Made by a program: the position numbers and the translations under genes. The notes under the pieces are model-generated. The model saw only the letters and a program-made list of their open reading frames with translations, was not told the DNA's origin and did not search any database. Shown piece by piece: positions 16,244-44,157 of a DNA stretch of 64,000 nt; the stretch's first letter is position 1; each line of letters starts with the position of its first letter. This DNA comes from Amphiscolops sp. MND2022 (lineage: Eukaryota), in contig OZ076409.1 of the NCBI GenBank assembly GCA_964187785.1, forward strand, positions 8,310,001 to 8,374,000. Direction: 5' to 3'.

Positions 16244-17032
16244 TACGTAATCACGGAAACATAGGATGATCAATTTCGAGAACAGAAAGTTCTAGGCTTT
16301 GAGGAGATAGATAGAGTGAACCTTCGGTTCTTCAACCTACAGACGGGCGCTTTTGCTTGTTTTTCTTGGTTTGTCAAACGTTGCTTCTGTCGCTTCAGTT
16401 CTTACAAGTTGAACTTTGTCGCATTTAACAAACAAAGAATGGTTCGTTGTCTGTCCTCTTGTGTGAGTACATTGTGCAAACTCCTTAAAACCGAAGCAGA
16501 AGAGAGATAAGTAAACTTTGAAGCAGCTGGCGTTGTTTACATGCGCAAACCATTAGAAACAGTTGTTTCTCTTTCTCCTTTTAATCACCACCTATTTTGA
16601 TCAGAACGCTTCATTCAAACATCCACGTATAAACAAATAATGGATCGATTTGGTTCATTTCCAACCATTCGGATTGTCGCTCAATAATTCAAATCGATTT
16701 TCTGTACTGTGGAATAAAAGCTTTTGAAAATGAGTGAATTCAAAACTTAAAACTTGCCAACACCAAAACTATGCTTGATAACGGAATACGGTAATACCGT
16801 ATTTCTTCAAATACTGGCCGCGGCTTGTAAGTTTTTTTCCGCAGTCGAAGAAATATGGTAAGCTATCCCGGGTTTCCCTCCCATACAAAAACAGGTCAAT
16901 CAAACTCTGGGACCATGTGATCTATTTTCCCCCCAGGTACACCTTGTTAGGAATTCCCCCCCCCCAAAAAAAACGAAAACGGCTTTTTCACAAGTATACT
17001 AATTATTGAATGAATAACACAAGTTGATATGC

Positions 17033-17329
17033 TTACAAATAAATGTAAATTTGTATGTAAATTAAATGTAACCATTTTGATAACTGAATATTGCTTTGGG
17101 CGAAAAAACTTCCCGTGCGAATAGAAAAAATACTTTTGAATTTCGCACAATTTCCATTTTGACACTTCCAGCCAAAACCATCTTTGACTTTTTTAAATCT
17201 TGTCCAAAACAGACAATTTTTGCAGATGGGACAATTTAAACTTCGTGGCAAAAGACCCAAATTTTTTAAATGCTGAATGCAAAGTTCGTAGTTTTGTAAA
17301 TATGGAAGTATGTCCGTTTGGAAGCACAT
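17033..17329 (-). pseudogene. Merlin/ISXO2-like transposase N-terminal zinc-ribbon fragment
   Basis: LKNLGLLPRSLNCPICK...DGFGWKCQNGNC...FSIRTGSFFAQSNIQLSKWLHLIY matches the GLL...C..C...W.C....C...SIR.GSFF..S pattern of Merlin transposases. The DDE core is absent. Confidence 0.75.
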
Positions 17330-17374
17330 TTCAAAGAATAATGATCGATTTTAACTGTCAATCAATGTAAAAGA

Positions 17375-17555
17375 TTTAATCTTGATAGTTTTTTACTGTG
17401 TGGGTTTATCCACCATTATATCAAGGAATTATTAAGTGTTGTTTCTGCTTTTAATTTTAGCAGTTTAAATTATTGTATTTTGTTTTTTAGATTTACTGAT
17501 GATGACTTAAAGTCGAAAACGTTTTAATTAACATTGACTCTCTGACGTTTTCATT
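17375..17555 (+). repeat. PLE 5' direct terminal repeat (pseudo-LTR)
   Basis: It matches 20240-20420 with one visible mismatch (AATTAACATT vs AATTAGCATT). Confidence 0.92.
17490..17532 (+). ncRNA. Putative minimal type I hammerhead ribozyme in pLTR
   Basis: CTGATGA-T-GAC(TTAAA)GTC-GAAA-ACGTTTT gives the conserved core, a 3-bp stem II and a palindromic stem III. Stem I is weak. Confidence 0.65.
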
Positions 17556-17565
17556 CTACTCGTCA

Positions 17566-20193
17566 ATGTATTATCCGTATGTACTTTTCAAGAAGAGATT
17601 GGAAGAACAAAATTTGTGGGGAAATTACATCGCCTACATACGGAAGCTTTTCAAAATATCGGCAGCTAGACTGAGAATCCGCTTCCTGAATCAGTGCCTG
17701 CAGAATGATGTTATACCGAGGTTCCTCAAGTTTCGGGTCCCAGATAATGGCTGCTTTGAGAGTACTATTGTCCACAATTTCCAGCGAAGATTATTGCGGC
17801 GGGAACTAGCACAGGCTAGGAAAGTACTAGCTCAACATGAGAATGAACTCGGTGATGTGCGTAAAACGCTTTGTGGCCTCTACGAGAATTTGCTCGTTTC
17901 ATTGGGTTGGTACGCGCGTCATGCAGTTCGAGAGAGCCATTCGCGTATTGCAGCCAGACAGAGCAAGAAGCTCCGCGATTTGGCTTTGCAGCAGGAGAAA
18001 CCACTCCGATCTAACGAACGGACGGTGGTCGTGCTGGATGAAGTGAAATTGCCTGAATTTTGCCTCGACGTCCTCTCGCTAGGACCAAAACATCCGGTTA
18101 AGGACAAACTGAACGAGATGTCCTTTCTAGCGGATTTTGACGGCTGCTTGAACGACCTGAGAAATGTCGGTTCGGAAACATTGAATGGACTTAATGCCAC
18201 GGCCACGTGGTATCTGAAACAAAGTAAAAGGCTCAAAACAGACCGCTCGGTGGTCAAAGTCAGAAGATTCCTTAAAGAGCAGGGCCTCAAAGCGGTCCCT
18301 TTTGACAAAGGAACAGGTTTTTGCGTTATGAAGGAGGCAGACTATTTTGGGAAACTGACCAAACTGATGAATTGTGCCCAGTTTGAGAAAGTAGATGCCT
18401 CACGCAATATATGTCAAGGGACAGAACTGAGCCTCAACAAGAAACTACTGGGTCTCATGAAAGCAAAGAAGATCAGCCAACAATTTTACGAGAAATGCAG
18501 AAGTACAGGCGCGCAGCCAGCAAGGCTTTATGGGCTGGCCAAGGTACACAAAGCCAATGTTCCACTCCGCCCAGTACTGTCTCTGCCCGGTAGCTGCTAC
18601 GAGAACCTAACGAATCACCTAGCAGTGTTTCTGGAGAACCTGGAAGAAGCAAAGATTCAAACGTCAAGCAGGGATATACGCGATGCTGTCCAGGAACTCA
18701 CACTGAACGAGGATGAGGTTCTCATTTCATTGGATGTGAAGAGCTTATACACGAACGTCCCTGTGAGCGAATCCATATCTCTTGCCGCGGACCTTGCTTA
18801 TCGCCACCGGGAGATGCCGTTCGATAAGCAGACGTTTATCGACCTTCTTCGCCTGGCTCTAATTGATGTACTTTTCCAGGTGGGCAACTCTTGGTACAGG
18901 CAAGTTGATGGCCTGGCAATGGGCTCCAAGCTTGCTGTCTATTTGGCAAACATTTGGATGTCGCAGTTCGAATCAAGGTTGGGTGGCAAAAGGAATGCGG
19001 AATGTGGTGAGGACGACAAGTCGCCAGTTAATGTAACTGATGTGAAAAATCCGTGTGGAATTTGCACTAAGACAGTGAACAGAGGCTATGCGGTACAGTG
19101 CAGTAGATGTGGTTTTTGGTACCACCGGGTTTGCATTGGCTACACCACATCCCAAATACGAGCTTTGAAACCCGGATCGTGGCATTGTGGGTGTCGATGG
19201 AAGATAACGCCATCCGCGAGAGACGAATCGAAGCTCTTCTTCCGTTATATGGACGACATCATCAGCATATGCCATCGTGATCAAACAGAACATCTCTTAG
19301 AGGAAGTTAATTGTATCCATCGAAACCTGTCTTTCACAATTGAGGTGGAAGAGAATGGAAAGATCCCGTTCCTTGATATGATGTTAATACGTCAAGGGCC
19401 GAGGGTTTCGACGGCATGGTTCAGGAAACCCACGGATACAAACACTTGTCTCAATTACTATGCCTGCGCCCCCACCCGATATAAACGCAATACAGTGGAG
19501 GGAACGGTACACCGGATTTTTAACTGCACTTCAAGTTGGAAGCTGTTTCATGAAGGTTTGTCAGAAGCTAAGTGGATCTGGGAAGATAACCAGTACCCAC
19601 CTTCGTTTTACCAGCCGATTGTAAATGAGGCTCTCAATTTCATTATTACGGGAAAGAGGTCTCGCGGAAAAGCAGCTTCGGATGCGGAGGGGGCTACGGA
19701 AGATAGACCGAAGTCTGTGGAATCCACCCTGTGCCCGAGTCGGGACAGGTCACTTCTGTTGATGCAGTATCATGGAAAAATCTCCGATTGTTTTAGTAGA
19801 CGAATAAGAACCATTTGTCCTCGAATAAATGTTGTTTTTGTCACCAGGAAATTGAAGACATTCATGCCATCGCTAAAAGGTAAGATTCCAGACGAGCTGA
19901 AAAGTCGGGTCATTTATGAGATTACTAGTCCAGGCTGTAAGGCCTGCTATGTCGGCATGACCAGCCGACATCTGTGTACCCGACTGGAAGAACACCGAAA
20001 GGAATCTGCACCGGTAGCGCAACATTTGAAGTCGTGTGGAGTCTCAGATTTTGGTGCAAAGATTATAGACTCGTGTTTTAACGTGGTCAAGTTAGCGACA
20101 CTTGAGTCTCTCTACATTGAGAAACAGAAACCCTCTATCAACATCCGGGAGGAGTACAGGCAGCGCCCGCTGTCCATCAAGCTGATCCAATAA
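17566..20193 (+). CDS. Penelope-like reverse transcriptase / GIY-YIG endonuclease (875 aa) with internal PHD finger
   Basis: RT motifs are LYGLAKVHK..PLRP, SLDVKSLYTNVP, GLAMGS, RYMDD and PFLD. The C-terminal GIY-YIG reads VIYEI...YVGMTSRHL.TRLEEH...LESLYI...KPSIN. Confidence 0.95.
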   Translation: MYYPYVLFKKRLEEQNLWGNYIAYIRKLFKISAARLRIRFLNQCLQNDVIPRFLKFRVPDNGCFESTIVHNFQRRLLRRELAQARKVLAQHENELGDVRKTLCGLYENLLVSLGWYARHAVRESHSRIAARQSKKLRDLALQQEKPLRSNERTVVVLDEVKLPEFCLDVLSLGPKHPVKDKLNEMSFLADFDGCLNDLRNVGSETLNGLNATATWYLKQSKRLKTDRSVVKVRRFLKEQGLKAVPFDKGTGFCVMKEADYFGKLTKLMNCAQFEKVDASRNICQGTELSLNKKLLGLMKAKKISQQFYEKCRSTGAQPARLYGLAKVHKANVPLRPVLSLPGSCYENLTNHLAVFLENLEEAKIQTSSRDIRDAVQELTLNEDEVLISLDVKSLYTNVPVSESISLAADLAYRHREMPFDKQTFIDLLRLALIDVLFQVGNSWYRQVDGLAMGSKLAVYLANIWMSQFESRLGGKRNAECGEDDKSPVNVTDVKNPCGICTKTVNRGYAVQCSRCGFWYHRVCIGYTTSQIRALKPGSWHCGCRWKITPSARDESKLFFRYMDDIISICHRDQTEHLLEEVNCIHRNLSFTIEVEENGKIPFLDMMLIRQGPRVSTAWFRKPTDTNTCLNYYACAPTRYKRNTVEGTVHRIFNCTSSWKLFHEGLSEAKWIWEDNQYPPSFYQPIVNEALNFIITGKRSRGKAASDAEGATEDRPKSVESTLCPSRDRSLLLMQYHGKISDCFSRRIRTICPRINVVFVTRKLKTFMPSLKGKIPDELKSRVIYEITSPGCKACYVGMTSRHLCTRLEEHRKESAPVAQHLKSCGVSDFGAKIIDSCFNVVKLATLESLYIEKQKPSINIREEYRQRPLSIKLIQ

Positions 20194-20239
20194 GTTTTAA
20201 ATCTTCACCAATAGAGAAGACGGGGATTTTTGACAGTGT

Positions 20240-20420
20240 TTTAATCTTGATAGTTTTTTACTGTGTGGGTTTATCCACCATTATATCAAGGAATTATTAA
20301 GTGTTGTTTCTGCTTTTAATTTTAGCAGTTTAAATTATTGTATTTTGTTTTTTAGATTTACTGATGATGACTTAAAGTCGAAAACGTTTTAATTAGCATT
20401 GACTCTCTGACGTTTTCATT
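20240..20420 (+). repeat. PLE 3' direct terminal repeat (pseudo-LTR)
   Basis: Copy of 17375-17555. Confidence 0.92.
20355..20397 (+). ncRNA. Putative minimal hammerhead ribozyme, second copy
   Basis: CTGATGATGACTTAAAGTCGAAAACGTTTT starting at 20361. Confidence 0.65.
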
Positions 20421-20629
20421 TCGTAAAAGATATGATTATGTCGACATCAATTATTTTATTGGACTAAAATTTCAACGCAACGATGTCGACATAATGGTAT
20501 TTGACTATTTAAAATGTTATGTCGACATAATTAATTCGTTTAAAACTAGTATTTGAACCTACTGTATTTTTCCCCCGCCGCCACAGTTTGGGGGGAAATA
20601 GATCACATGGTCCAAACTTTGCCATCTTA

Positions 20630-28419: not shown

Positions 28420-29103
28420 TTATTTTGAAAAGGTTAGCATATTTGTTGTATGGCTCGGTCGCTTCGCTCCCTTCGCCAAGTAGCAACACTGAGGCATGGC
28501 CATATGGCACGTCGCTCCGCTTCGCTTCGCTCCTGCATTTAGGGCACTAGGGGTGTAAGAACCATGACCCATGGTATCTCTTAAATCTCCTACAGATCTT
28601 GAATCTTTCTTTGCAATTTTTATTTTAGGCCCGGGTGCGCTTTCCCTGTTCTCCTGACTATTTGGAGACGAACTGGCCTCAGTGTCCCTGTGTCCCATAG
28701 AGGACATCGAGTTTGCAATATTCTGGATTTCTGGAATAACTCTTTCAGCTATAGCTGTCGATATAGCCCCATTTATTTGGCTATGCATTATTGACATCAT
28801 AGATTCCATTTCTTGAGACAATCTAAGATTAAACTCACTTGAAAAGGCTTCAAAGGATTGCCTGACTTCGTTTTGTCTCAAAGGTTCATTTTCATGTAAG
28901 TAACCTCTAAACTCATTTTCATGGTACACATTCGTATCACCGTCCCCGTGGGCCGATGACTGATCTATTGCTTCAGCTAGCTCTCTTTCAATGGGATTGT
29001 TATTTTCATTTCCCAGCATCACATCTAGGTTATCATAGTCGGACAGTATGTCCATTTCTCTAGATCTCCTAGCTTTGGCTTTCTGTCGTCTAGTGGAAGG
29101 CAT
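28420..29103 (-). pseudogene. Duplicated Gag N-terminus in the 3' LTR, reading out into flanking DNA
   Basis: The first ~183 aa are identical to the 41459-43147 ORF. It diverges after ...GHGSY at the LTR edge (28554). Confidence 0.9.
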
Positions 29104-30113
29104 AAGAGATTATTGCAAGAGGCAAGAATTTAAATTAATATCTTGGGCTTGCAAAGTGAAAATGAACGGGTAGTTTTAATAAACAATTCGCAACAGTAAC
29201 ACATCAAAGTATCATCAGGTTAATTCTGTCTCCGAGCCCACCAGTCCCGGTTATATATATTTGAATTTGCATGACACTCAATAAAATGGTGGTCATAATC
29301 TAAAAATAGCCTTAAAGGCTTTCTAAATATAGCTACAATCTATAAATAGCAGGCAACGTCAACATTACATCATGTAGATCAAAGGTCCCTCTTGGCGGCA
29401 AATATGGCGGTGGGACCATGAGTCCGTTAGGACAAGCAACTGCTTACATGCGTACTAATCAACGTGCTACATGTATGAAATACATATTACATGTATGAAA
29501 TGCTTATTACATGTATAGATGGTAACTTTACATATATTCTAAATATATCGCGCAAATTACATATAAAGCAACACCATCAAACTAAGTCTAAAATATTAAG
29601 TCAGTCCTTTGAGGACTAATAGCGCCTTTTATTAGCTATCAAAAGATTAATTATTACATAACCAGTACTGCTAGATAGAATAGCACTCTCAATTAAAGCG
29701 CGGACTCAGTGTCCAATAGACTGGTACAGCCCAGCGCTTTATTAGCAGGCGGCATATAGCCGTCTAGTCTTTTAATTCTATTAAGCCAGCACGAGTAAAG
29801 GTTACATAACACTGCGCTATGATTGGATGACGAGTTAGTCGGACTTGCGGACCAAGGCGACAGGCAAGAAAACATTTGAACGCGTTTCCTTTACCTGTAC
29901 GCCTTGGTGTCCAATTAACTCGTATTAATGCATAGAATTACATAATATAACTTGCACAAAATGAAATATATAGAGTTTTACATGACTTTTTAGAGCAACA
30001 ATAATAGTTTTCCTTGTAAGTTTTCTAATTTAATGGAAGGGTGAAGGGTTCTGCTTTCTTGTAGCTATGGCAGATTGAGTATGTGTTGCCATCACAGGCG
30101 GACGCCTGGGACA
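28554..30113 (-). repeat. Element 1 3' LTR (1560 bp)
   Basis: Direct repeat of 42598-44157 (offset 14044). No difference was seen by eye. Confidence 0.97.
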
Positions 30114-31068
30114 CTCCCCCTGGAATAAGCATAAAGCAGCCCACCTTCATTCCTTCCAAGAAGGCTAGTCGTCTCGCATTGAACTGCTTGGCGGATTCTC
30201 CTCGGACGGACGTCTTGTGTAGATAATCTATGACCGCTTCGTCCTGAATCTGTTCCACAGATTTTCCACACACGAGACAATCTGTGCACCCTGTAATATA
30301 CGGGTTATCTGCTGCGGTCGGTCCACGGAAGTGAATACCACCTTCGTGTCGTTGGGAGCTGCCACAAGTGGCTTCCGCGGTTATCCTCCAGTCGCCCGTA
30401 GGATATTTATCAATTGCTGGGGGCGACATGGGTGTGTCGACCAACGGGATCAGTTGGCTGCACAAGTTGATTGGATGGTCGTTTCTAAGCCGTGAATCCC
30501 TCGCAATTGGTCCTCTGCCCATTCCCAGCTCAAAGTACCCAGCGTCGAACATCGGTCCCGGCACGTATGCAAGCCTGGGAGTAGTAGCTCGGGTCACTTC
30601 TTGCTTTCCTGAAGCTGAGGGGATTTGAATTCCTGCTGAAGTCGACGGCAAGTCCAGTTGTCTTTCCACACATTGGGCCAAGAGGGCCATTTCGTCGTCA
30701 TCAGACAGGCTCTCCAAGTCATCCACGGACGCCCTGCTTGCGCACTCCATGTCGTCGTCACTAGAGATGCAAATAACACCGTCTCCCGGGGCTGCTCCTT
30801 GAAAATCTTCAGGGTAATACTCAGGGGACTCTGAGTCAAATTGACTTGCAAGGAATTTATTCATTATTGCTTTTTTGGCAATCTTGGAAGTTGTTAGTTC
30901 TAGGTTTTGAAATTTGATAAGCAGCTGAATTTCGAGATTGAAACTGAAACAATGGCGATTTCTTCCTCCGTCGACTAGCGGGATTTTCTTCTCAGTTTCC
31001 CGGGGTTTTACGTCTCCCGAGAAGGATAAATTTTCAATAACAAATTCTATCTTGGTAATATCTTTCAT
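30025..31068 (-). CDS. ORF3, accessory protein of unknown function (likely start Met at 30864, ~279 aa); not env-like
   Basis: Open 347 codons. It is homologous to element 2 ORF3 (PMSPPA; CxxCG.S...I..E...DY; RGE; G.F..IP..VSQA..C.G) and has a SIM-like VICISSDDD. There is no obvious signal peptide or TM anchor. Confidence 0.8.
   Translation of the reverse strand: MKDITKIEFVIENLSFSGDVKPRETEKKIPLVDGGRNRHCFSFNLEIQLLIKFQNLELTTSKIAKKAIMNKFLASQFDSESPEYYPEDFQGAAPGDGVICISSDDDMECASRASVDDLESLSDDDEMALLAQCVERQLDLPSTSAGIQIPSASGKQEVTRATTPRLAYVPGPMFDAGYFELGMGRGPIARDSRLRNDHPINLCSQLIPLVDTPMSPPAIDKYPTGDWRITAEATCGSSQRHEGGIHFRGPTAADNPYITGCTDCLVCGKSVEQIQDEAVIDYLHKTSVRGESAKQFNARRLAFLEGMKVGCFMLIPGGVSQASACDGNTYSICHSYKKAEPFTLPLN
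30114..30121 (-). promoter_or_regulatory. Polypurine tract (AGGGGGAG)
   Basis: Purine run abutting the TG of the 3' LTR on the minus strand. Confidence 0.75.
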
Positions 31069-32138
31069 CTTTCCGTCTTGCCTTCTTTGATAACGCCGAC
31101 AACTGCCTTGTTGGCTTACATCAGTTCTGTCAACACCTCCATATTAAGAGTGCCGCTTCAAGTGTTTATTAACACTCAACAAGCACTTAAAAGATTCAAG
31201 AGGGTGAAGCTATGGCAGACGGCCACGCCGTCCATCAGCGTTTCTGATCAACCAATAGGAATGCAGCAAAATTTCTCTTGAATAAAAATGGCTTCCCAAG
31301 GTCGTAAATCCATATAAGGAATAATATAAAATGACCTGAAATTAAATAAAATCCTGGTAAAATCATGAAATATCTAATAAAATGGTAAAGTTTCGAAATA
31401 AGATAAATGGAAGAATGTAGATATTGCTGGCAGACTCTATCCACATAATAGTGTAAATTGTAAATATCTTGTAAATTTGACACCAAATTGTATAGCCACG
31501 AACTCCAACTTTGACATCTTGTCACATTGCCAATTCTCTTTTCAATTCATTATTTTCAAATTCTTTCCAGTTACTCTTTGTATTATCGTCCAGTATTTAA
31601 TCATCTCTAGTCTTTTAGTCTTCTAGTCGTATTTACTCCGTATTCATTTAAAGTAGTCATTTGTAATTTCTTCCAATTACGTCTTTTGTGGATTTCTTGG
31701 GTTATCCTAGGACAATCGACACTGAGTCCCTTTTGCTAATTCATCTTCAGCAATCTTTCTTGTCCTTCATCAAAGAAGAATTTGTCTTCTCTCTACAACT
31801 GCTGCTGTATTGTCACCAGTCCAGCTTCGTCATCCTTCTCTACTGATCGCTCAGCTTCCAATTCAGTGACCACCAGTCTAACTGTACACAGTACTCCCTT
31901 CTCAAGACATCCTTCTTTGCTTTCAAACAGGTCAGTAGCTTTTCAGGTTTTGTTTCTATTTTAGTATTGAATTAATCTGAGGCTTGATCAGGGCTCTCAT
32001 TTCATTCACGTACTTCCTGTCCCATAACACAAGTATTCACTTGAGTTCGAAATATCTACTTCCGGAAGATTTTTTAACGCGGTAATGGACTCTTTCTCAG
32101 GAAGTTATCCGCTTGAGTTTATCTCTTTCTGTTTAGAC

Positions 32139-35100
32139 ATGTCGTCCGAAGAGCAAAACGATATTGTTCCTGCCACCGCTACTACATCCATGATTGAAGA
32201 AGAAGTTGCCATCCCCAAAGAAGCTGGTACTAGTCAGGCCACTTCGATCCCTGTTGACCCTGAGTCCACGCAACTTGTGCCGCCAGGAGATGATCCTGAT
32301 AAGGCTGCTCCGACCCCAAGCCCTTCTACGGATGAAAGCATTTCCGCTTACATTGACCGTCAATTGCAGACTTTGGGTTGCCAGGGCCTTGGACTTGACA
32401 TCTCCTTCTTGCCCCCTACTACATCTGCCATTGTAGACAATGCACCAAAGTCAATCGCTGAGAAAACTTCTGAGTCGGAACCAATTCCCCAGGTCACGAC
32501 TGGGTCGCAAGACAAGGAGTCTCCTGAGGCTGAGATTGAGCGAGGCGGTGATGCTGCCAGTGAAGCTGGATTTTCCGTCACCAAGGCGGATTACTTCCAA
32601 ACTGATACCAGCGACACTGAAGAAATACTCGATAGTTCCGGTGCTGAGACCATCAAGGAACCACCTTTCGTGATTGCACTGGATGCGCTAAGCTCCACTG
32701 GGACTGAGACCCATGAGAATGTCAAGCCATCCACCTCGGCTGAGATACCTGGCACATGTTCTCCGAAGCTCTTCAGTCCAACCAGACCTTTATCTGCCTC
32801 TGCTAGAACGCTGATAAATCAGCATTTCAATGAGACCAACCCATGTATCCTCCCGGTAGGCCATGCGACTGTAGCCTTCAATCAGGGGCAAGTCCATTCC
32901 ATCTTGCGTGCCGTCTCCACGGAGACCATTACTTCTTCCCTTCATCAAATGAAGAACATGCTGGAAGAAGCGATCCGGGCAGGAATTCGCTCCCAAGGTA
33001 CTCCTCAAGGATCCGGGAAGCAGCGAATCAAGATCTTCCGTAAGCAGAGCGGCAGCCTTGGATCAGGTGCGGAAGACAGTGACGTTGGGACTGAGGGGTA
33101 CACTAGCGGAGCCCTCAGTTCGGAAGATGAGTTCGTCATCAATTCTCAGAGAACCAGCAAGGATCTGAGCATCAATCCTCCTCCAAGTCCTCCAGATCAA
33201 GGTTCGACATCAACACCTGGCCCATCGTCCGCACAGCAAGTCCCTAGTCCAGGATTCTGCTCGACTGACTATGAGCCTCTAGCCACATTGACCGCTGACC
33301 AAGCTTCTGCCTCAAGTCCACCTCGCAAACGTCGTCGGCTTCCAGTACGCACAGGCAAAGTAATGAAAGAAGCCTATTTCAAAGGAATTCAGTGGACTCG
33401 GACATTCGTCACTGGCCCCCTTGATCCAGAACACAACAAACATAAGTTCTACTGCCAGATATGTAAGACGAATGTTTCCATTTTCTCAAAAGGAGCCCGG
33501 GAGATTGTTCGCCATTTCCAGTGTGAGTCGCATTTTCGCAAAGACCAGCGCTGGAGATATGAGCACCTAAGGAAGAAGGACAAGGTGACTGGCCGGACTG
33601 TGTACGAAGTCAGGGGGAAGAAGGGCCAATTGTTGACCCCCTTGGAGCTTGAGAAAGAGAAGCCTTTCTTTATGCAAGTCCCTTTGGTCGAAACTGGCAG
33701 CAGTAACCCCTTCTACGAGGACCATATGGCTGGCCTTGGCTCCATCGCTGGGCAGGAGGAGATCAGACTGTGTGTTCAAATCTCCATGGTTGCTCTCTTC
33801 GCTCCCCGTTGTGGAGATCTAAACGTCCTTGAGTCGCTATGGTCACAGATTGGCACTGTTACCAATCATCAGAGTCTGTTCTCTCCTTACGATTGGGGCT
33901 CCTCCAAACTGACAGTAAGTATCGGCGGTTTCTAGCCTCAGGGTCCTTTAGTCCTAACGTAGACCCGACTCATTTTCATCCTGGTTGATTTTGTTTTAGA
34001 CGATCTTTCATCACATCTTCCTCTGCGGCATCGCTGACATCGCCTATCAAGTCAGTGTCACGGGTCAGTACTCTCTGGAGTTTGAAATGCGAGGCACCTA
34101 CAGCTTCATCTCGATCCGGTTCTGGAAGGGCGAATCCCTCAATGTCGTCCGTTTGCTACGATACCGGACTGCTTCAGAGCCTGCAGCTGGTTTCCTGTTG
34201 GTACTTTCCCGCCTCTTGTCCGTCCTATCAACGCAACCTCAGATTGTGAGCGTGTCCGGGTGTCCTGCAGAGGTGATTCCTCTTCTTGAACGTTCTTGCC
34301 TCTTCCAAAAAGGGATTGAGTACCCTTTCCGATTTGATGCTCTTTGTCTGCCAGACCTGATGCATGAACGATGGGGCAGCGTGTTTGGCAGTATCAGCTT
34401 CTTCTCTCAGTTGAAGTTTCTGATTACCTTCCTGGACGGTTGCGGTGGACAGCCCTGGGCCGCCCTGATGCCAGAATTCGTCAAGGTAAGGTCACTGTCC
34501 GTAAGACTGTAGGTCCAGTTTTGAATTGCCTCCAATAAGCATGTTGATTGTAGGCGATGACTACCTATCACCTGGAGATTGCCGCTGTACCAGCCATATG
34601 TTCGGAACTAATTGCGAACTGGAAGTCTGTGCACCAACATCTGACGAAGATAGCACCACCACAGGTCCACCAGGGGGTCAAAAACAAGCCCCAAAGCCTC
34701 GAGTGGGAAATCATAGCTGATGATTTCTTCACCATCAAGCTGGAGTTCTTCGCACGAATTGTCCGCGATTGTTAGTATATTGTTTTTTCTCTTGTCTACG
34801 GACCTCATGGTCCCAGTTTGTCTTACCACTATTTGAGGCTCATGCTAGATATAGTAGATTGACATGCTAGGTCTAATGGTTTCATAAAGACCCTTCAGGA
34901 TGGTAATGTTTTGTTTTCCAGACACCAAGAGCTTCGAGAGTCAGTTTGCGCAACGAAGGGATAGTGGCTTCTACACCTTCCGAGAGTTCCATACTTTCAT
35001 TCGCAAGTTGGCAGGTCGAGCACTACTTCCCAGACACGTGCCTGATATTCTGGACTGGAAGTCGCTGGGAGATTTGCAAGGACAGAATTGGCGACAACTG

Positions 35101-36072
35101 TCTAATCGAGATTTCTTGAGTCGCTTGAAGCTCAAAGAAAATTTGGATGCCGCATGCCATGCTCGCGTCAGGAGAATTTATAACGAGAAGCAACTGACGC
35201 CTGAAGAGACGGAGACAGCAGCTGAGGCCCTTCGGGACGATTTCGCCACCAAGGCCCGAGGTTACCTCGTCCACCTTTTGAAAGTCTTCCTGGCCGACAT
35301 TAGCTTGAATGCCCGTATCGTAAGAGGTCTGGGCAGTTTCGATCCAGTAGCCCTCCTGAGTCTGCCGCTTGAGCAAGCCACATACTGTTTCTCCGCTCTG
35401 TACAGATCCTTTAGTTTGCGAGGCTGGTTAGAGAATTCCCCAGAGACTGATGCCCGAGACGAGTACATCGATTTCGTGGAGTTCTTCCGCCAAGCCAACT
35501 CTGGAGTCAAGGATACCCCAGAGGTCTTCACCGACATGGTAGCCTTTCTGATTGGTATGCCTGAATTGAAGTTGCGGAAACATCTGTTCTACATCTTCCA
35601 GTTGAGTTGTCTGTGCCTGACTTCTAAGTTGCCAGAGCTTCCAGCCATCAAATTCTCTGGAGTTGACTGTAATGATCCCCGAAGTAGACTTTTCGATGTC
35701 ATCATGCCTGCACAGTCTTACCTAGCTAATGTGGCTAATTCAGTGGCTGTGTGCACTACAGAAGCTTCCCTGGGCACCTTCAAAGATCTGGAGTTCCGAT
35801 TCAGTATTGGCAACGTCCCAGGAGACCCTTGGTCACACGTAGACAGTTTCGGCAAGGCTAATTTGCATAAAACTTTAATTGCAGTCTACAAGGCTCTGGG
35901 CAAGAGTGTCCGTCCTGACATCGAGTCCGCTTCCAATTCCTCGTCCAAAGAAGGGGGGAAACAACGTAAGCTGTCCCCTGGTAAAGGCAAGAAAGTTGGC
36001 TTTCGGGCAGCTGGTGAGACTGAAGCCGCAAAGTCCAGTGATGCAAACGCTCCTGGAACTTCTAAATCTTAA
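32139..36072 (+). CDS. Spliced antisense gene, ~1209 aa: disordered N-terminus, NLS, BED/TTF-type zinc finger, inactivated hAT-transposase-like body. Coding exons 32139-33914, 34000-34485, 34554-34770, 34922-36072
   Basis: Three GT-AG introns join four ORFs in frame with no stops: 33915-33999 (GTAAGT..TTTTAG, phase 0), 34486-34553 (GTAAGG..TTGTAG, phase 0) and 34771-34921 (GTTAGT..TTTCCAG, phase 1). Motifs include W...FYCQICKTNVSI...G..EI.RH....SH and PPRKRRR. Confidence 0.88.
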
Positions 36073-36308
36073 ATGTACAAAGAGTACATTTGTTTCTAGA
36101 CTGTACTTGTTGTAAATTGCTTTATATTTATTTCTTCTTTGTTGCCTGTTTGTGTGGCTTTGTATTATTCGCCACTGAGTCTCTCTTTTCGTATATAATT
36201 AGTTCCAGTAATCGATAAGAAAAATCAGTCAGAGTAGTCCCAAGTAAAAAATAAAAGTCCTCAAGGGCTGGAAGTGAAGTAAAGGGACTGGTAATTCAAG
36301 TTTTCTGA

Positions 36309-39300
36309 CTAGTATCTGTATTCATCAGTAAAGTTGGGGGTAGGGTTAGGTCGAAGATTGTATTTCCCTCCTCTAGGGCTCGAATTTTCATTTGAATTTC
36401 CATTTTTTGATATTCCGGGCACGGTAATATCTGCGCCTTTGTTTGAAACGTTTTCCGTATCTTGTAAATCATTAGTGACGTCATTTTCATTCTCAGTGCG
36501 CTGTGACGTTTGAGTCGGGGGGGACGGTTCGTCACTGCTATTGTTCTCTCTCGGGGATATTTCGTCCTCGGTAACGTCATATTCTGTCGTACGCTCATTG
36601 TAACTTTCATTGCTGACGCGTTCGTTCTCGGTGACGTAATTTCTTGTCGTGCGCTCGCTGCAGCTTTCATTGATAGTTCTTTCCTCGTCGGTAACGTCAT
36701 TGTCCGTATTAGTGGACTCGGCGTCCGTCGGCCGGCGTGTGGCCACGTCTGTCCAATTTTCCTTCCTCGGTTCAAATAAGTCGTACTCAAAGTCTACTTC
36801 CCATGAGATAGTGTACAAATCGTCTTGCGGGATTACTATCTCATTGTCGGGTTGTAGTTTTTCTCCATCGTATTTGTCCTCTAAAGGGGCATTCGGGACG
36901 AATTTCTTTAGTCTAATGCGATGAAGTATTTGAGTTTTATTTGTATTTAGACGACGGACAATATAATTGTCGTTGGACAGTACTTTTTGAATGACGAATG
37001 GTCCAATCCACCTGTATTCCTTGAATGGAATTTTTGATGCTTGACTGTCCGCTTTAGGTTGTAGAACAAAACAATAGTCCTTTTCTTTAAGCGGGGCAGC
37101 CTTTGCCTTTCGGTCGTAATAGTCCTTATATTTCAAATAAGACTGCATGATGTTCTTTTTCGTTTGATCTATGAGGATTTGTGTCCTCTGCTGTACTTCC
37201 TCCGCAAATTCTGTAGTTGGCAAAAAATTTTTATTGGGGTTATTTCCCAATTTGTGGTCTAGGACGTTATAGGGAATCCGGCCGTGGAAGACTTTACTCG
37301 GTTCGCATCCAATACTAGAGTGGTATGTGGTATTGTAGTTGAGTACTGCTAATGGTAAATATTTATGCCATTGGCGTCGATATTCCCCTGAGGCCATTTT
37401 CAAATTTGTTTTGAGTGAGGCATGCGTCCTTTCGAGTTTGCCAATTGTTTGCGGGTGCTTTGTAGTAGCACATTTGAGTGTTATACCCAAAATTTGAGTT
37501 ATCTCAGCTATGATGGTCGATGTAAATGCGGACCCTTTGTCTGTGATGAGAGTTGTTGGTAAATATGAATGTTTCGTCATGATATCAATTATCACCTTGG
37601 CTACATTCGTGGCTGTTGCCTCAATTAGCGGGTAGGCGAATAAGTACCTTGAGAATACATCTATAGCTGTCATCACCGTCTGGTATCCGCCACTAGTCGG
37701 TAAGTTTGGTAATAAGTCTATCTGCATGGCATCTTCTGGACCAAGGTCCCATTCGGGCAAGTTCAACAATTCTGGTGTAATTGTATTATTTGGGACTCTT
37801 TTGTCTCTAGCGCACGTTTCGCATCCCTCTACCCATTTTTTAACGTATTTTGCTATGCCAGGGTAGTAATATTTTTGGCGGATCTCTTGCAGCATTTTAG
37901 AGATGCCAGGATGTCGATGTGCCGTGCCATGTATTGCTTGCAGTAGTTCTTTCAACAGGTGCTTTGGTAGTAAGATTTGGTGGTATTTGATTTGTCCCGT
38001 TTCGTCGTAATACTGTCGGGTCACTATTTCGTCCTTGAGGACTATACGGTCTAAATTATTTAAATAATGTTTATACCGGCTGTCCTGCTGAAGGATTTCC
38101 TCAGAGTATTCTTCATTTTGAATTTTTGCTTTTAAATGAAGCAAAATCGGATCTTTGGATTGTTCTAGTAGTATTTGGTTGGTTCTACGTAGTTTCTGGG
38201 TGAAATTGGTAATTTCATCCACTACATTTTCAGATATAGTATCTATTTGGATGACGGTCTCGTCGACCTTGAGTCCTGCTTTTGATTGTCTTTTCCTTTC
38301 CCAAATTTGTTCTTCTGTTTCATTGTCTTCTTCGGTAAAGAACACTTGTTCTTCTTCAGACACGCCGGCTGATTGGACATTGACTTCAATGGGTTGGGTT
38401 TCAACGTCCGCTCGGATTTTTAGGACTAACTTTTCAGTGGGGTCCATTTCCATGCGGGACAGGTAGTCCGCCGCTGTGTTGTTTTTGCCTGGAATGTGCG
38501 CTATAGTGAAATTGAACTGAATGACAAAGTCACACGCGTTCCATAATGGCGGCGGTATTATTTTAGTCTGGAAGAACCTTGTGACCGATTTGTTATCTGT
38601 GAGGATAATCACCGGCTTAGGTGTGCCCCAGAATATATGTCCAAATTCTTTGAAGGCGTAATAGATGGCTAAGAATTCCTTCGCATAAATTGACATTTTA
38701 AGTTGTGAAGGAGTAAAAGTTTTTGAACCATATGCAATAGGCGCATAGGATTTCTTGGTTGAGGTAAATTTCTGATTTGGATCATCTTCAGTAAGTATAG
38801 CATATCCGGCTGCTGTAAAGCTAGCATCTGTCATCAGGACTAGCTGTCGATTTGGCAAGGGCTGCCTAAGGGCCAGCTGGGTGCATCTGTCCAAATCTCT
38901 ATTGATCTCGTTGAATTGTTCGATCAGTTCCGTTGTGACTAAGACCTTTTCGTCTTTCTTTAATAGTTGAAAGAAAGGGACTAATTTTTCTGATAACCTC
39001 GGTATGTAGTTTCTATAATAATTAAGGAATCCGAGGTAACGTTGTAAGGCTTTTTTGGATTTTGGGAATTTCGTTTTTTCTAGGAATTGTGTGACTCGTT
39101 CCTTCTGGGGCTTGACACCCTCAGGGGTGATTGTCCTTCCTAAGAAATCAATCTCAGTTGCTCCAAAGTGGCATTTATGCATCGTTAATTTCAATCCAGC
39201 CTCTCGGATGCATTCGAAAGTTGCTCTGAGATTTTTAATGAGATGCTCCGCGTCGTTGGCTGCAATGCCAATATCGTCCACGTATTGGGCACATTGATCG

Positions 39301-41456
39301 GCTTTGATGACACGGTCCAAATATTCTCTCATAAAACTGGAGAATGCCGATAAGGCTCTGCTGAGACCTTGGGCCAATCTTCGATATGCGAACGTTCGGC
39401 TGGCAAAGTTGAAGGCCAACATCTCTATAGACCGTTGGTCCGCCATTTGAAGGCAGTGGTACGCTTGCGAACAGTCAAGTTTACAGAAAAGTTTCTTTCC
39501 GGCCATATGTTGAGCAGCGTCCGTTAAGGTGCTGACTGGATGGTTGTTGTTGATATAATCATCAGAAATAAGATTGTTGATCTTCCTGAGGTCTACCAGT
39601 AGTCGTAGTTTCCCATTAGGCTTCTTTTGTGCAAAGATAGGGCTAGCGTACTTTGAGAATGGTAATGTTGTTATAATTCCATATTTGTGTAGTGACGCTA
39701 ATTCGACCAGTATGTCCTCTTTTAAATTGACCGGAGTTGGTAAGCTCTGGCTGTAGGCAGGAGAGTCGTCCTTTGGGGTCAATTTGACCGTGAACTCCTC
39801 ATTCATACCGATGTCAAACCTATGACGGGCAAATATGTCGTGAAATTCGACTAATAGCGCTTCTATCTGTTTGATTTCATGCTGTTGTAGCATTGAGTCC
39901 TTCCAGTCAAAGTTACTGAGGAATTTTTGTCGAGATTCTTCATTGTCTTGTGGGTTGAGTTTTTCTGCTTCTTGCAGGTTTCGTAATTCTCTAAGAATTC
40001 TCTTTTGTATTGGAGTATGGGACTCTTCGTCCCCTGGGTTTTCGGGTGTTGGAAACCAGTATTGTTCGTATTGGTCATTGTTCCTGTTGGCTTTGAGAAG
40101 ACTGCTGATATAATAAATAGCGTCTTCTTCATTTTCATTGAGTAGGTGCCAAGTGGACACTGGGTCTATTGGCCTAACGTGCTTCATTTGCTCTGGAGTC
40201 ATCACAGAGAAATTCGCTATGTGCATCCCTTTTTTGAGTTTAAAGGGCTGATCAGTGAAGTTGTTGACATGGATCCTCGTAGTCCCTTCGTCCAATGTGA
40301 CTATGGCGGCACAAAATGTTATATCATTTTCTTCATTTAGAAGGTCACTGGGTTGTAAGATTCCAGTGACAGCGTTTTCTGCATAAATTTGAGATTGGAT
40401 AGGGATGATTGTGCGTCCATTTGGGGGAATCGTTATATCCTCGGGGTTGAGGATGGGTTCCATCACATTGGAGTACTTATGGTCAGCTGTTTTCAATTGC
40501 ATCGAGAAGAAGGGAAAGTTAAGTATGCCTTGGCGCATATCTAGGACTGTGTGGTTTCTTTGTAAGAACATAAGTCCGATTATGGGGCTGGATAATTTTT
40601 CCATCACTATGAAGATTTCGTGGAACTCTATGTCCCCTACTTCGAACTTCAGTTCTACTGTACTCTTCGGAGTTTCCAGGTCTCCATTGGCGACCATAAT
40701 TTGGAATGACGGGGCAGGACCCTCTTTCACTATTGATTGGGGTGCAAGTAGCCGTATTTTCCTAAGGTCAGCTTCTGGTATCGCACTGGAGTGGGCCCCA
40801 GTGTCTATGAGACCATCTAATGTTAGTTCTCCAAAGTCCATTGGGAAATATAGCATCCTCCTTTTGATTTTGAGGCCAAGGTTGGTGGAGAGGGGAACGT
40901 ATGACGGTTCTCCTTGTTTTTCCACTAAAATGTGCAAGAAGGCTGTTTCGTCTAAAAGGCTATCGGGGCCTTGAAAGTCTTCTTGTTCTTGAGTTTCCTC
41001 TATTTCTTCTAAAAGTGCTTCGGAATTTGGCTGCCAAAGTTCAATGAGGGCTCTGGATAGTTTATTGTCCACTATCGGGGGATCATCCTCATCGTCCGTT
41101 GGTGGATATTCGTCTTGTCTAAACTGGAGTTTTTGTCTGTCGTAGAGTTCGTCGTCCCAATACGGGTCTTTGCCGTAATCAGGATCGAGGTATTGAGGGT
41201 GATAATCTTCGATCAGGGGTAAGGGACGGAATTGAGTCTCGAAGTCTTTAGTATAGTCTATTTCGTAAAATCGGTCTGGGCGATCATTATGTACTATTTT
41301 ATAAGTTCGGATACAGGCTTTTTCCATTTGTTGCTGCCAGACAACAGTGGGAATTCCTTTTGTATCCTTGATTATTTGGCTGTATTTGATTATTGGAGGA
41401 TCTGAAATGACATATTGTCGAACCGACATGTAGTCATGTATTTGGAGTCGTGGCAA
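36309..41456 (-). CDS. pol: Pol polyprotein (protease, dUTPase-like spacer, RT, RNase H, integrase), translated by -1 frameshift from gag
   Basis: LIDTGA (protease), KLDCSQAY/YVDD (RT), TDAS...ADYLSR (RNase H), H..AH.HPG...CETC, QIDLL/TDKGSAF/LERTH (integrase) and WIGPF (GPY/F motif). Confidence 0.97.
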   Translation of the reverse strand: MPRLQIHDYMSVRQYVISDPPIIKYSQIIKDTKGIPTVVWQQQMEKACIRTYKIVHNDRPDRFYEIDYTKDFETQFRPLPLIEDYHPQYLDPDYGKDPYWDDELYDRQKLQFRQDEYPPTDDEDDPPIVDNKLSRALIELWQPNSEALLEEIEETQEQEDFQGPDSLLDETAFLHILVEKQGEPSYVPLSTNLGLKIKRRMLYFPMDFGELTLDGLIDTGAHSSAIPEADLRKIRLLAPQSIVKEGPAPSFQIMVANGDLETPKSTVELKFEVGDIEFHEIFIVMEKLSSPIIGLMFLQRNHTVLDMRQGILNFPFFSMQLKTADHKYSNVMEPILNPEDITIPPNGRTIIPIQSQIYAENAVTGILQPSDLLNEENDITFCAAIVTLDEGTTRIHVNNFTDQPFKLKKGMHIANFSVMTPEQMKHVRPIDPVSTWHLLNENEEDAIYYISSLLKANRNNDQYEQYWFPTPENPGDEESHTPIQKRILRELRNLQEAEKLNPQDNEESRQKFLSNFDWKDSMLQQHEIKQIEALLVEFHDIFARHRFDIGMNEEFTVKLTPKDDSPAYSQSLPTPVNLKEDILVELASLHKYGIITTLPFSKYASPIFAQKKPNGKLRLLVDLRKINNLISDDYINNNHPVSTLTDAAQHMAGKKLFCKLDCSQAYHCLQMADQRSIEMLAFNFASRTFAYRRLAQGLSRALSAFSSFMREYLDRVIKADQCAQYVDDIGIAANDAEHLIKNLRATFECIREAGLKLTMHKCHFGATEIDFLGRTITPEGVKPQKERVTQFLEKTKFPKSKKALQRYLGFLNYYRNYIPRLSEKLVPFFQLLKKDEKVLVTTELIEQFNEINRDLDRCTQLALRQPLPNRQLVLMTDASFTAAGYAILTEDDPNQKFTSTKKSYAPIAYGSKTFTPSQLKMSIYAKEFLAIYYAFKEFGHIFWGTPKPVIILTDNKSVTRFFQTKIIPPPLWNACDFVIQFNFTIAHIPGKNNTAADYLSRMEMDPTEKLVLKIRADVETQPIEVNVQSAGVSEEEQVFFTEEDNETEEQIWERKRQSKAGLKVDETVIQIDTISENVVDEITNFTQKLRRTNQILLEQSKDPILLHLKAKIQNEEYSEEILQQDSRYKHYLNNLDRIVLKDEIVTRQYYDETGQIKYHQILLPKHLLKELLQAIHGTAHRHPGISKMLQEIRQKYYYPGIAKYVKKWVEGCETCARDKRVPNNTITPELLNLPEWDLGPEDAMQIDLLPNLPTSGGYQTVMTAIDVFSRYLFAYPLIEATATNVAKVIIDIMTKHSYLPTTLITDKGSAFTSTIIAEITQILGITLKCATTKHPQTIGKLERTHASLKTNLKMASGEYRRQWHKYLPLAVLNYNTTYHSSIGCEPSKVFHGRIPYNVLDHKLGNNPNKNFLPTTEFAEEVQQRTQILIDQTKKNIMQSYLKYKDYYDRKAKAAPLKEKDYCFVLQPKADSQASKIPFKEYRWIGPFVIQKVLSNDNYIVRRLNTNKTQILHRIRLKKFVPNAPLEDKYDGEKLQPDNEIVIPQDDLYTISWEVDFEYDLFEPRKENWTDVATRRPTDAESTNTDNDVTDEERTINESCSERTTRNYVTENERVSNESYNERTTEYDVTEDEISPRENNSSDEPSPPTQTSQRTENENDVTNDLQDTENVSNKGADITVPGISKNGNSNENSSPRGGKYNLRPNPTPNFTDEYRY

Positions 41457-41458
41457 AA

Positions 41459-43147
41459 TTAGTTTTTTGAATCAGATTTTTTAGTATTGGATTGGCTTGA
41501 AGTAGCCGTTTCTGAGTCATTTGCTTTTTTAGGCTTTCCTTCGGAGTCTATAGCATTTCGGTCATTTTGTTCTGTCTGCATCCTTTTGGGTCGCAGGTGG
41601 GCGCCAGCGCCTTGCCAGCATCTTTCGGTTGGGTGGTTCTTTTTGCCACATGTGTCACACGGTGGGTAAGTTGGACGTTGAGGTTTTTTACCGTCTTTGT
41701 CCTCCATTTCCTTTTTCTTCTTGAGTTTCGGGCAGTTTTTGTAATAATGACCTGTCGCTTTGCAGTATGAGCATTGGGCGTCTTTATTTGTGTTGATACC
41801 ATTAGACAATAAGTTGTTATGGCTCGTGGACGCCGAGGCCATAGTGGCCATTGGTAGATCATCTGACTCTTCTAATGCATTGAGTTCCAGTTCTCTTTCA
41901 AGATGAGCTACTATTTCTTCATACGTGCCATTCTCCAGACGGGCCATGTTGACAGATCGTTTCAGTTTTGGGGGTAATTTCGCGTATAACAAGCTGTCGA
42001 TCATGCTTTTAGCGTTTTCCCCAAATGCTTTTTCTGCACCTTGGTTTAGTTCTTCCAAGAAGTCTGGTAGTTTCATTGTACTTGGGTCGAAGGTTAATCG
42101 GTGCCATTTATGCTTTGCTGTTGCTTGTGATTCCGGTTTGACATATTTCCTCCGGAATATGACCAGTACGTCCTCGAGAGTTTGACGGTTGATTGAGTTT
42201 ATGTTCCTGAATGTCTGTAATGCTCCCTTTCGTAGCAAAGAATGAAAGTGATTAATTTTCATTTGTTCTGTCATTGTGGGCTGCATTTTGATCATCGTAT
42301 GGAACAAGTCCTCAAAGAGCTCAAATTTCTCACTTTTCCCATCAAATGTCATCGGGGTTGTTTGTACGGGTCTGATTGTCATAGATTGCGGTTTGTTTTG
42401 CAAATTGACCAATACGTCGGCTAATCTATTAAACGGGTCCTGAGGAGGTTCAGGAGCCTCTGGGGCCGGGGCTGGCAGAGTCGTGTCCAGAGAGATATTG
42501 TGGGTAGATTGTTGTCTCTCTAGGTTCGGGATTGAGTGGATTCGTCCGGTCAGAAATTCGGGAATTTGCGGTTGGGTGTCGGTAGCTCCTGTCACCATGT
42601 AAGAACCATGACCCATGGTATCTCTTAAATCTCCTACAGATCTTGAATCTTTCTTTGCAATTTTTATTTTAGGCCCGGGTGCGCTTTCCCTGTTCTCCTG
42701 ACTATTTGGAGACGAACTGGCCTCAGTGTCCCTGTGTCCCATAGAGGACATCGAGTTTGCAATATTCTGGATTTCTGGAATAACTCTTTCAGCTATAGCT
42801 GTCGATATAGCCCCATTTATTTGGCTATGCATTATTGACATCATAGATTCCATTTCTTGAGACAATCTAAGATTAAACTCACTTGAAAAGGCTTCAAAGG
42901 ATTGCCTGACTTCGTTTTGTCTCAAAGGTTCATTTTCATGTAAGTAACCTCTAAACTCATTTTCATGGTACACATTCGTATCACCGTCCCCGTGGGCCGA
43001 TGACTGATCTATTGCTTCAGCTAGCTCTCTTTCAATGGGATTGTTATTTTCATTTCCCAGCATCACATCTAGGTTATCATAGTCGGACAGTATGTCCATT
43101 TCTCTAGATCTCCTAGCTTTGGCTTTCTGTCGTCTAGTGGAAGGCAT
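41459..43147 (-). CDS. gag: Gag (562 aa) with two zinc knuckles; starts inside the 5' LTR
   Basis: Capsid-like TFDGKSEKFELFEDLF region, with CSYCKATGHYYKNC and CDTCGKKNHPTERC knuckles. Confidence 0.95.
   Translation of the reverse strand: MPSTRRQKAKARRSREMDILSDYDNLDVMLGNENNNPIERELAEAIDQSSAHGDGDTNVYHENEFRGYLHENEPLRQNEVRQSFEAFSSEFNLRLSQEMESMMSIMHSQINGAISTAIAERVIPEIQNIANSMSSMGHRDTEASSSPNSQENRESAPGPKIKIAKKDSRSVGDLRDTMGHGSYMVTGATDTQPQIPEFLTGRIHSIPNLERQQSTHNISLDTTLPAPAPEAPEPPQDPFNRLADVLVNLQNKPQSMTIRPVQTTPMTFDGKSEKFELFEDLFHTMIKMQPTMTEQMKINHFHSLLRKGALQTFRNINSINRQTLEDVLVIFRRKYVKPESQATAKHKWHRLTFDPSTMKLPDFLEELNQGAEKAFGENAKSMIDSLLYAKLPPKLKRSVNMARLENGTYEEIVAHLERELELNALEESDDLPMATMASASTSHNNLLSNGINTNKDAQCSYCKATGHYYKNCPKLKKKKEMEDKDGKKPQRPTYPPCDTCGKKNHPTERCWQGAGAHLRPKRMQTEQNDRNAIDSEGKPKKANDSETATSSQSNTKKSDSKN
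41462..41468 (-). promoter_or_regulatory. -1 ribosomal frameshift heptamer A AAA AAC
   Basis: TCA AAA AAC TAA lies at the gag end, and the -1 frame continues K-L-I-L-P-R-L-Q into pol. The identical heptamer is present in element 2. Confidence 0.85.
42586..42597 (-). promoter_or_regulatory. Primer-binding site TGGTGACAGGAG (tRNA-Leu-like, inferred)
   Basis: It begins with TGG directly after the LTR CA. The identical 12-mer follows the element 2 LTR. It is one mismatch from the TGGTGTCAGGAG Leu-type PBS. Confidence 0.8.
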
Positions 43148-44157
43148 AAGAGATTATTGCAAGAGGCAAGAATTTAAATTAATATCTTGGGCTTGCAAAG
43201 TGAAAATGAACGGGTAGTTTTAATAAACAATTCGCAACAGTAACACATCAAAGTATCATCAGGTTAATTCTGTCTCCGAGCCCACCAGTCCCGGTTATAT
43301 ATATTTGAATTTGCATGACACTCAATAAAATGGTGGTCATAATCTAAAAATAGCCTTAAAGGCTTTCTAAATATAGCTACAATCTATAAATAGCAGGCAA
43401 CGTCAACATTACATCATGTAGATCAAAGGTCCCTCTTGGCGGCAAATATGGCGGTGGGACCATGAGTCCGTTAGGACAAGCAACTGCTTACATGCGTACT
43501 AATCAACGTGCTACATGTATGAAATACATATTACATGTATGAAATGCTTATTACATGTATAGATGGTAACTTTACATATATTCTAAATATATCGCGCAAA
43601 TTACATATAAAGCAACACCATCAAACTAAGTCTAAAATATTAAGTCAGTCCTTTGAGGACTAATAGCGCCTTTTATTAGCTATCAAAAGATTAATTATTA
43701 CATAACCAGTACTGCTAGATAGAATAGCACTCTCAATTAAAGCGCGGACTCAGTGTCCAATAGACTGGTACAGCCCAGCGCTTTATTAGCAGGCGGCATA
43801 TAGCCGTCTAGTCTTTTAATTCTATTAAGCCAGCACGAGTAAAGGTTACATAACACTGCGCTATGATTGGATGACGAGTTAGTCGGACTTGCGGACCAAG
43901 GCGACAGGCAAGAAAACATTTGAACGCGTTTCCTTTACCTGTACGCCTTGGTGTCCAATTAACTCGTATTAATGCATAGAATTACATAATATAACTTGCA
44001 CAAAATGAAATATATAGAGTTTTACATGACTTTTTAGAGCAACAATAATAGTTTTCCTTGTAAGTTTTCTAATTTAATGGAAGGGTGAAGGGTTCTGCTT
44101 TCTTGTAGCTATGGCAGATTGAGTATGTGTTGCCATCACAGGCGGACGCCTGGGACA
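42598..44157 (-). repeat. Element 1 5' LTR (1560 bp)
   Basis: TGTCCCAGG...GGTTCTTACA on the minus strand; repeat of 28554-30113. Confidence 0.97.
43295..43325 (-). promoter_or_regulatory. Putative LTR core promoter: TTGAGTGTCA + 12 nt + TATATATA
   Basis: The same two motifs with the same 12-nt spacing occur at 48619-48648 in the otherwise unalignable element 2 LTR. The site is ~150 nt upstream of the gag ATG. Confidence 0.6.

Follow-up and report, generated by a model that had tools for sequence, protein, structure and literature searches.

What lies between two catalytic motifs of a Penelope-like reverse transcriptase (RT) in the window, the 64,000-nucleotide stretch of Amphiscolops sp. MND2022 DNA that we analysed, and what might it do there? 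The RT is part of a single ORF on the plus strand at 17506..20193 (895 aa stop to stop; 875 aa from the ATG at 17566) that has no internal stop. From N- to C-terminus, we found an N-terminal region, a DKG motif as in Penelope-like RTs, the RT, an insert with a PHD finger, the thumb and a GIY-YIG endonuclease; the element has no separate ORF1. RT motif B' (GLAMGS) with the next helix is at 18910..18978 (+), as placed by motif reading, alignment and AlphaFold, and motif C (RYMDD), with the catalytic aspartates, is at 19243..19257 (+); its R, D and D are invariant in 131 aligned proteins. From the start of GLAMGS at 18910 to RYMDD at 19243 there are 111 aa. The initial annotation had described these motifs as about 111 aa apart in a stop-free ORF and had given a normal spacing of about 30-40 aa, and our reading of the ORF and its homologues agrees with both: among the 117 homologues that have both motifs (120 were listed, and 3 with no motif-B match were left out), the spacing is exactly 32 aa in 103, while 11 have a PHD insert and 3 have a Cys-free insert between B' and C. 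Compared with the normal 32 aa, the 111-aa spacing therefore means an insert of about 79 aa, and the Pfam RVT_1 match (aa 349-492) ends where this insert starts.

To which class of element the ORF belongs can be read from its endonuclease. The GIY-YIG endonuclease is C-terminal (19909..20190, +) and its motifs (VIY...YVG) were read directly. The HMMER searches that had been suggested for this locus returned PHD and RVT_1 matches but no Pfam GIY-YIG match in the window copy; homologues P0006 and P0098 match GIY-YIG only below the cut-off. The first Cys of the endonuclease CxxC is a Ser in the window copy and a Cys in the copy of the element on C4. In all seven full-length proteins inspected, the endonuclease is C-terminal with CCHH (CxxC plus HH) and there is no CX2-5CxxC linker finger. 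Based on such features, we assign the ORF at 17506-20193 as a Penelope/Poseidon-type RT and GIY-YIG protein. It resembles Penelope/Poseidon, as set out in the available text of PMC8557442, in the DKG motif, the order of RT and then GIY-YIG with CxxC and HH, the absence of a CX2-5CxxC linker finger, the pseudo-LTR (pLTR) and the target duplication; in contrast to Penelope/Poseidon, the window clade has 62-93 extra residues with a PHD finger between B' and C. Membership of Chlamys or Naiad was rejected because the GIY-YIG endonuclease is C-terminal, not N-terminal.

The whole Penelope-like element (PLE) is full-length, with a pLTR, the ORF and a 3' repeat, and spans 17375..20422 (+); start and end are approximate, and the boundaries are common to the C4 copy. 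It is flanked by an 8-bp target-site duplication (GTAAAAGA) whose left copy is at 17367..17374 (+) and whose right copy is at 20423..20430 (+). The 5' pLTR at 17375..17555 (+) is a 181-nt direct repeat, 99% identical to the 3' repeat at 20240..20420 (+) that is its source; this repeat, and a tandem array of a sister family on C1820, show the pseudo-LTR and tandem organization by which PLEs are recognized. Within the 3' repeat, the core boxes of a hammerhead-like motif (CUGAUGA...GAAA) and two stems are visible in the sequence; an Rfam search of the element repeat gave 0 hammerhead matches, and the hammerhead-like region has a folding z-score of 0.11. The second full copy, on C4, differs by 16 bases (99.5% identical) and has one stop. 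Given the 8-bp target duplication and this 99.5% identical copy, the family was therefore mobile recently. The element is inserted in a high-copy small repeat, and its two flanks are found joined in many empty copies. This host repeat, which has inverted ends, is present at 17200-17374 and 20423-20595 of the window, with arms at 16910-16933 and 20590-20613, and is itself nested in further inverted repeats.

We found that the insert consists of a PHD finger at 19054..19194 (+) between two variable linkers, one N-terminal at 18979..19047 (+) and one C-terminal at 19195..19227 (+). The finger is a Pygo-like C4-H-C3 PHD with a W-x-C-G-C end, identified by Pfam, a PDB sequence match, fold matches and ligand conservation. 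The pattern CGIC-x11-CSRC-GFWYH-RVC-x15-WHCGC lies exactly at 19054-19194, where the initial annotation had placed it, and Pfam PHD (PF00628, cut-off 24 bits) matches it, with 27.4 bits when the whole protein is searched (E 3.3e-6) and 32.3 bits when only the insert is searched (E 1e-7). Among solved structures, the Pygopus PHD is closest in sequence (E 8e-7). Instead of C-x-x-C, the last two ligands form a C-x-C, as they do in 17 of 22 intact PLE fingers.

The AlphaFold model (131 sequences) has a mean pLDDT of 91.5 for the protein. In this model, the motif C strands are at 89-96 and the finger is at 77-89, and the low-confidence stretches (pLDDT <50) fall in the N-terminal linker at model residues 480-490 and in the C-terminal linker at residues 545-547, so that the prediction shows the PHD finger looped out of an RT modelled with confidence, a point that the initial annotation had proposed to check. 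The top structural matches of the full model are telomerase RTs (Z 15.8, rmsd 3.9 Å, 388 residues aligned). A model of a fragment reached 80-89 in the finger and a mean of 54.9; its cut RT was unfolded and only the finger part was used. Compared with PHD folds, the fragment finger matched VIA at a middling Z of 5.7 (rmsd 2.4 Å over 54 residues). Foldseek on the predicted finger gave no match at E<=0.001; its top rows were all PHDs (best E 4e-3), and PHDs are thus the best matches of the predicted fold, alongside the PF00628 match. An ESM Atlas search gave no usable match for the window region and only low-score generic RT clusters for P0009. Taken together, these models predict an RT that folds normally in a TERT-like manner and a finger that forms a separate unit between two linkers.

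To quantify constraint on the insert, we compared ten families that are 39-53% identical to the window family over the region. Seven zinc ligands are invariant and the eighth is kept in 9/10 families; two Trp and one Val of the finger are also invariant. The pN/pS ratio is 0.47 in the finger, 0.36-0.40 in the flanking RT, and 0.84 and 0.98 in the N- and C-terminal linkers, respectively (synonymous sites are saturated in this comparison, with pS 0.74-0.85). The N-terminal linker has a mean identity of 14%. Linker lengths, parsed in 24/26 families, range from 13 to 34 aa on the N-terminal side and from 5 to 20 aa on the C-terminal side. Zinc ligands are thus fixed while linkers drift, which is the pattern of purifying selection on the finger. 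Penelope-like elements are able to retain introns, and an insert that arose as an intron, as a nested fragment or through misassembly would lie outside the protein. We regard this as barely credible here: intact copies from many families have the insert in frame and free of stops, its length varies by whole codons, the codons of its Cys and His change synonymously without loss of either residue, and it is present in independent public proteins at <=74% identity to any sampled locus. The intron reading was rejected on the in-frame, stop-free sequence and on the synonymous codon change at kept Cys and His. By these comparisons, the finger is not intronic; it is a constrained domain of the coding sequence that hangs on free tethers.

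To see how widely the finger is shared, we looked at further copies and families. All 4 copies of the window element's family that were found in its own genome (G000) carry the insert, and 21 families (85% identity clusters) carry a PHD finger at the same site, with 94-125 aa between the motifs; an accident of a single copy was rejected on this basis. These 21 families are the ones long enough for a tree, and they comprise 11 from G000 and 10 at <=74% identity to any sampled locus. Among the best 150 public representatives, 60 have a PHD finger adjoining motif B' and/or C, 19 of them on both sides; some of these 60 are decayed, and several belong to families that also occur in G000. A named organism is attached to just one relative, a member of the P0092 cluster labelled Symsagittifera roscoffensis (an acoel), which is truncated before the insert.

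When we built trees on the RT columns with the insert removed, the PHD-carrying families formed one clade (FastTree 100, 149 rows; IQ-TREE SH-aLRT 100, 50 rows; 100/100, 56 rows). No PHD-less element falls inside this clade, and 8/8 PHD-less elements of the same genome that were placed fall outside it. Because the earlier queries had contained the PHD finger, the genome search was redone with the RT only, and 40 of 150 places were examined, mainly ones that had not been sampled before. We found standard spacing at 20 places, spacing that looks standard in broken copies at 3, a PHD finger at 11, a decayed PHD finger at 3 and no motif-B match at 3. The simplest reading of these sequences is one gain and no clean loss among the sampled families.

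The same loop also takes other inserts. Cys-free, low-complexity inserts of about 40-200 aa are present at the B'-C loop in P0097, P0099, P0103 and P0191, which belong to a separate PLE clade (support 87/48 in the 56-row tree), so the loop tolerates insertions. This tolerance, and the numerous PHD-less PLEs in the same genome, are what one would expect if the finger were a tolerated passenger, captured once from a LINE transcript by template switching and retained solely since a misfolded version would be harmful to the RT. However, a clean deletion would restore the 32-aa spacing, yet the finger is lost in 0/21 families; partial deletions are found only in single copies (P0143, P0176 and L152), and the Trp that lines the Pygo binding pocket is invariant. 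A mere passenger is therefore very improbable in our judgement, and we take the finger to be real and, by its conservation, functional.

To identify where the finger may have come from, we searched with a profile of the finger. The closest non-PLE fingers are those of APE-type LINEs: P0283 (E 9e-14), P0294 and P0295, which rank above a Pygo-like protein (E 3e-8) or close to it, and L072 of G000. The W-x-C-G-C end is common to 8 LINE fingers and 17/22 PLE fingers, and the L072 and P0283 fingers also share a Y/W-S/A-I-x-C stretch with the PLE fingers. These similarities suggest one ancestral capture of the PHD finger, probably from an APE-type LINE module. In a tree of the PHD finger only, the PLE fingers are not one group (6 changes), and four PLE fingers that end in C-x-x-C (P0011, L093, P0092 and P0098) group with fingers of other types while their RTs are inside the PHD clade; this placement may reflect a finger swap or noise. 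The PHD-only tree has only 52 columns and is therefore too short to fix the donor or the direction.

The LINEs themselves come in more than one layout. Single-ORF LINEs at L072:965-5125(-), L073, L074 and L090 have a 2A-like GDVESNPGP followed immediately by a PHD, and then APE and RT, and in one such LINE of G000 the open frame is 1387 aa. Two further LINE families of G000, at L080:2530-3264(-), L077:3657-4796(-) and L084:2550-4431(-), end their RT ORF with a W-x-C-G-C PHD, which follows a DR..W tail, which we take to be RTE-like, or C2H2-like fingers. In the public protein P0230, a 2A-like motif and three PHD fingers are accompanied by a C-terminal region that is unlike APE or RT and presumably Helitron-like.

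PHD fingers have been described in other retroelements, and the site distinguishes the window clade from them. According to the initial annotation, no PHD finger was known within a PLE RT core. This is incorrect: in the text available from Craig et al. (2021; PMC8557442), PHD inserts occur in five Chlamys PLE families, in the endonuclease in two of them and between RT2a and RT3(A) in the other three. The part of the supplement that is available for the same paper holds no PHD entry beyond these five families. Chlamys elements resemble the window element in having a single-ORF PLE protein with a PHD finger inside the RT, for which a chromatin role has been proposed (PMC8557442). In contrast to the window clade, which has a C-terminal endonuclease with CxxC and HH and an animal host and carries its PHD finger between RT4(B') and RT5(C), Chlamys elements have an N-terminal endonuclease and are green-algal, and their PHD fingers are in the RT2a-RT3(A) interval or the endonuclease (PMC8557442). 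By comparison with this published description, the capture in the window clade was likely independent of that in Chlamys.

The layout 2A-PHD-APE-RT is on record for non-LTR retrotransposons in the available text of Odon et al. (2013; PMC3708506). Both L072 and P0283 are built in this way. Like the window clade, such LINEs carry a PHD finger in cis on an RT-containing protein; in these LINEs the finger is N-terminal and precedes APE (PMC3708506), whereas the window clade, which belongs to an unrelated class of element, has it within the RT palm. The portion of PMC6673714 at hand describes reader domains in retroelements (chromodomains, MBD and PHD) and PHDs as common in retrotransposons. Chromoviruses and CopiaMBD are alike in that a retroelement enzyme has a reader-type domain for which guidance of integration is proposed or shown; in those LTR elements the reader lies close to the integrase, whereas the window clade is target-primed and has a putative reader inside the polymerase (PMC6673714). 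In PMC3597677, PHD is not mentioned, and our literature search gave no confirmation of a group II intron 'RT4a' insertion at the B'-C loop. Apart from the Chlamys case, neither a B'-C PHD finger nor an animal clade of this kind turned up in the search, whose scope did not include Repbase, Dfam or most subscription journals; a curated Repbase or Dfam entry for the PHD clade may exist. What is new here is thus the B'-C site and the animal clade with a C-terminal endonuclease; a PHD finger inside a PLE RT was already known.

To ask what the finger could bind, we compared it with Pygopus, its best match in both sequence and fold. As described in the available text of Fiedler et al. (2008; PMC2726290), the K4me pocket of Pygo has W366, Y341 and D352 as walls and V350 and A356 as base, binding also requires I357 and E360, and the W366E, V350E and A356E mutants have lost all or nearly all H3 binding. 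Of 29 PLE fingers tried, 22 were intact and could be compared; 7 failed the strict pattern. The W366 position is kept in 22/22 and a small residue is present at A356 in 22/22; V350 is V or L in 21/22 (the exception is a mis-register of the pattern) and I357 is I, V or F in 21/22. In contrast, Y341 is aromatic in only 6/22, E360 is acidic in 7/22, and Asp is present at the D352 position in 0/22, in a register that is approximate since loop lengths vary; the window copy has N, R and S at Y341, D352 and E360, respectively. The finger of the window copy has a net charge of +6; the median is +5.5, 14/22 fingers are at +4 or higher, and families range from -6 to +10. The finger of the Pygo-like P0292 is at -7. 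Relative to Pygopus, the PLE finger thus keeps the W366, V350, A356 and I357 positions, while it is basic rather than acidic, has a shorter loop 2 and a final C-x-C, and has mostly lost Y341, D352 and E360 (PMC2726290). The peptide groove looks selected, while the methyl-lysine cage and the acidic surface do not. Since the second aromatic wall and the acidic residues are mostly lost, we do not file the finger as a K4me reader, and it is probably not a strict reader of H3K4me2/3.

We favour, at a probability of about 0.55, a putative chromatin tether that would contact the backbone of the H3 tail and nucleosomal DNA. The finger would engage the N-terminal tail of histone H3 through the kept groove (W, V, small and hydrophobic positions), further contacts, to nucleosomal DNA, would come from its basic surface, and the protein-RNA particle would be held on chromatin while GIY-YIG nicks and the RT primes. 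Against such a tether, the H3 tail is itself basic and should be repelled by a basic surface, and the Cys-free inserts of the separate clade in the same loop indicate that passengers are tolerated. The initial annotation had suggested a chromatin-reading module that steers integration; in the finger, which is basic, one half of the Pygo H3K4me pocket has been retained and the other lost, and we infer such a role only conditionally.

The same charge could have another meaning. If the finger bound nucleic acid (its own RNA, the template-primer or target DNA), it would be a module for RNP assembly or processivity and not a histone reader. The basic net charge, the basic residues where Pygo has D352 and E360, the attachment of the finger beside the catalytic strand and the lack of a separate ORF1 are all consistent with this; nevertheless, the Trp, small and hydrophobic residues of the peptide groove hardly vary among families whose charge spans -6 to +10, and sister PLEs are mobile without the finger. 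We consider this possible but unlikely. The groove, or the loop-2 face, could instead bind a non-histone host protein for nuclear import, anti-silencing or as a decoy. Pygo, the closest solved finger, binds its partner BCL9 on a second face (PMC2726290, available text), and the list of fold matches includes PHD structures with non-histone peptides. However, no partner was identified and the helix that separates C6 from the final Trp differs from family to family, and we judge a host-protein role quite unlikely.

A chromatin tether also suggests a wider picture, which we hold tentatively and at less than even odds: the PHD clade would be an undescribed animal Penelope clade in which a PHD finger of LINE origin sits in the polymerase palm, immediately ahead of the catalytic YxDD strand, and selects integration sites by reading nucleosomes. 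If true, this would be the first chromatin-targeting mechanism for a Penelope-like element, acquired by exchange of a module between two unrelated classes of retroelement, and the clade points to domain exchange between LINEs and PLEs. PHD fingers are recurrent in transposons, and our literature search found no report of what any transposon PHD binds. The PHD clade is a clean test system in this respect: the finger persists in many diverged families, and the PHD-less PLEs that share the genome are a control for insertion bias. The B'-C loop of a telomerase-related RT can, it appears, carry a folded domain (predicted here) without loss of mobility, which makes this loop a natural docking point of interest for RT-based engineering.

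Several repeats related to, or neighbouring, the element were also seen. On G000:C1820 (L040 and L041), a head-to-tail array of a PHD-carrying PLE family with a 2743-bp period takes up most of the 39-kb contig, and several of its units have 853-aa open frames. At L086:2-3160(+) and L087:2045-7000(-), there are in-frame tandem repeats of 216 bp (72 aa), with at least 11 and at least 20 units, respectively; the repeat unit is the motif C-D segment of the RT of the L040 family, and the repeats run into the normal C-terminus of that family. These repeats are either a satellite-like amplification or an effect of assembly. In the window itself, an LTR retrotransposon at 28554-44157 (-) has identical 1560-bp repeats (28554-30113 and 42598-44157), gag at 41459-43153 and pol at 36309-41471, with a dUTPase between protease and RT; it also has extra plus-strand ORFs at 32028-33935, 34000-34512 and 34888-36072 with little or no Pfam match. 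A second LTR element at 47118-58697 (+) has 2156-bp repeats at 97% identity and a fragmented gag/pol.
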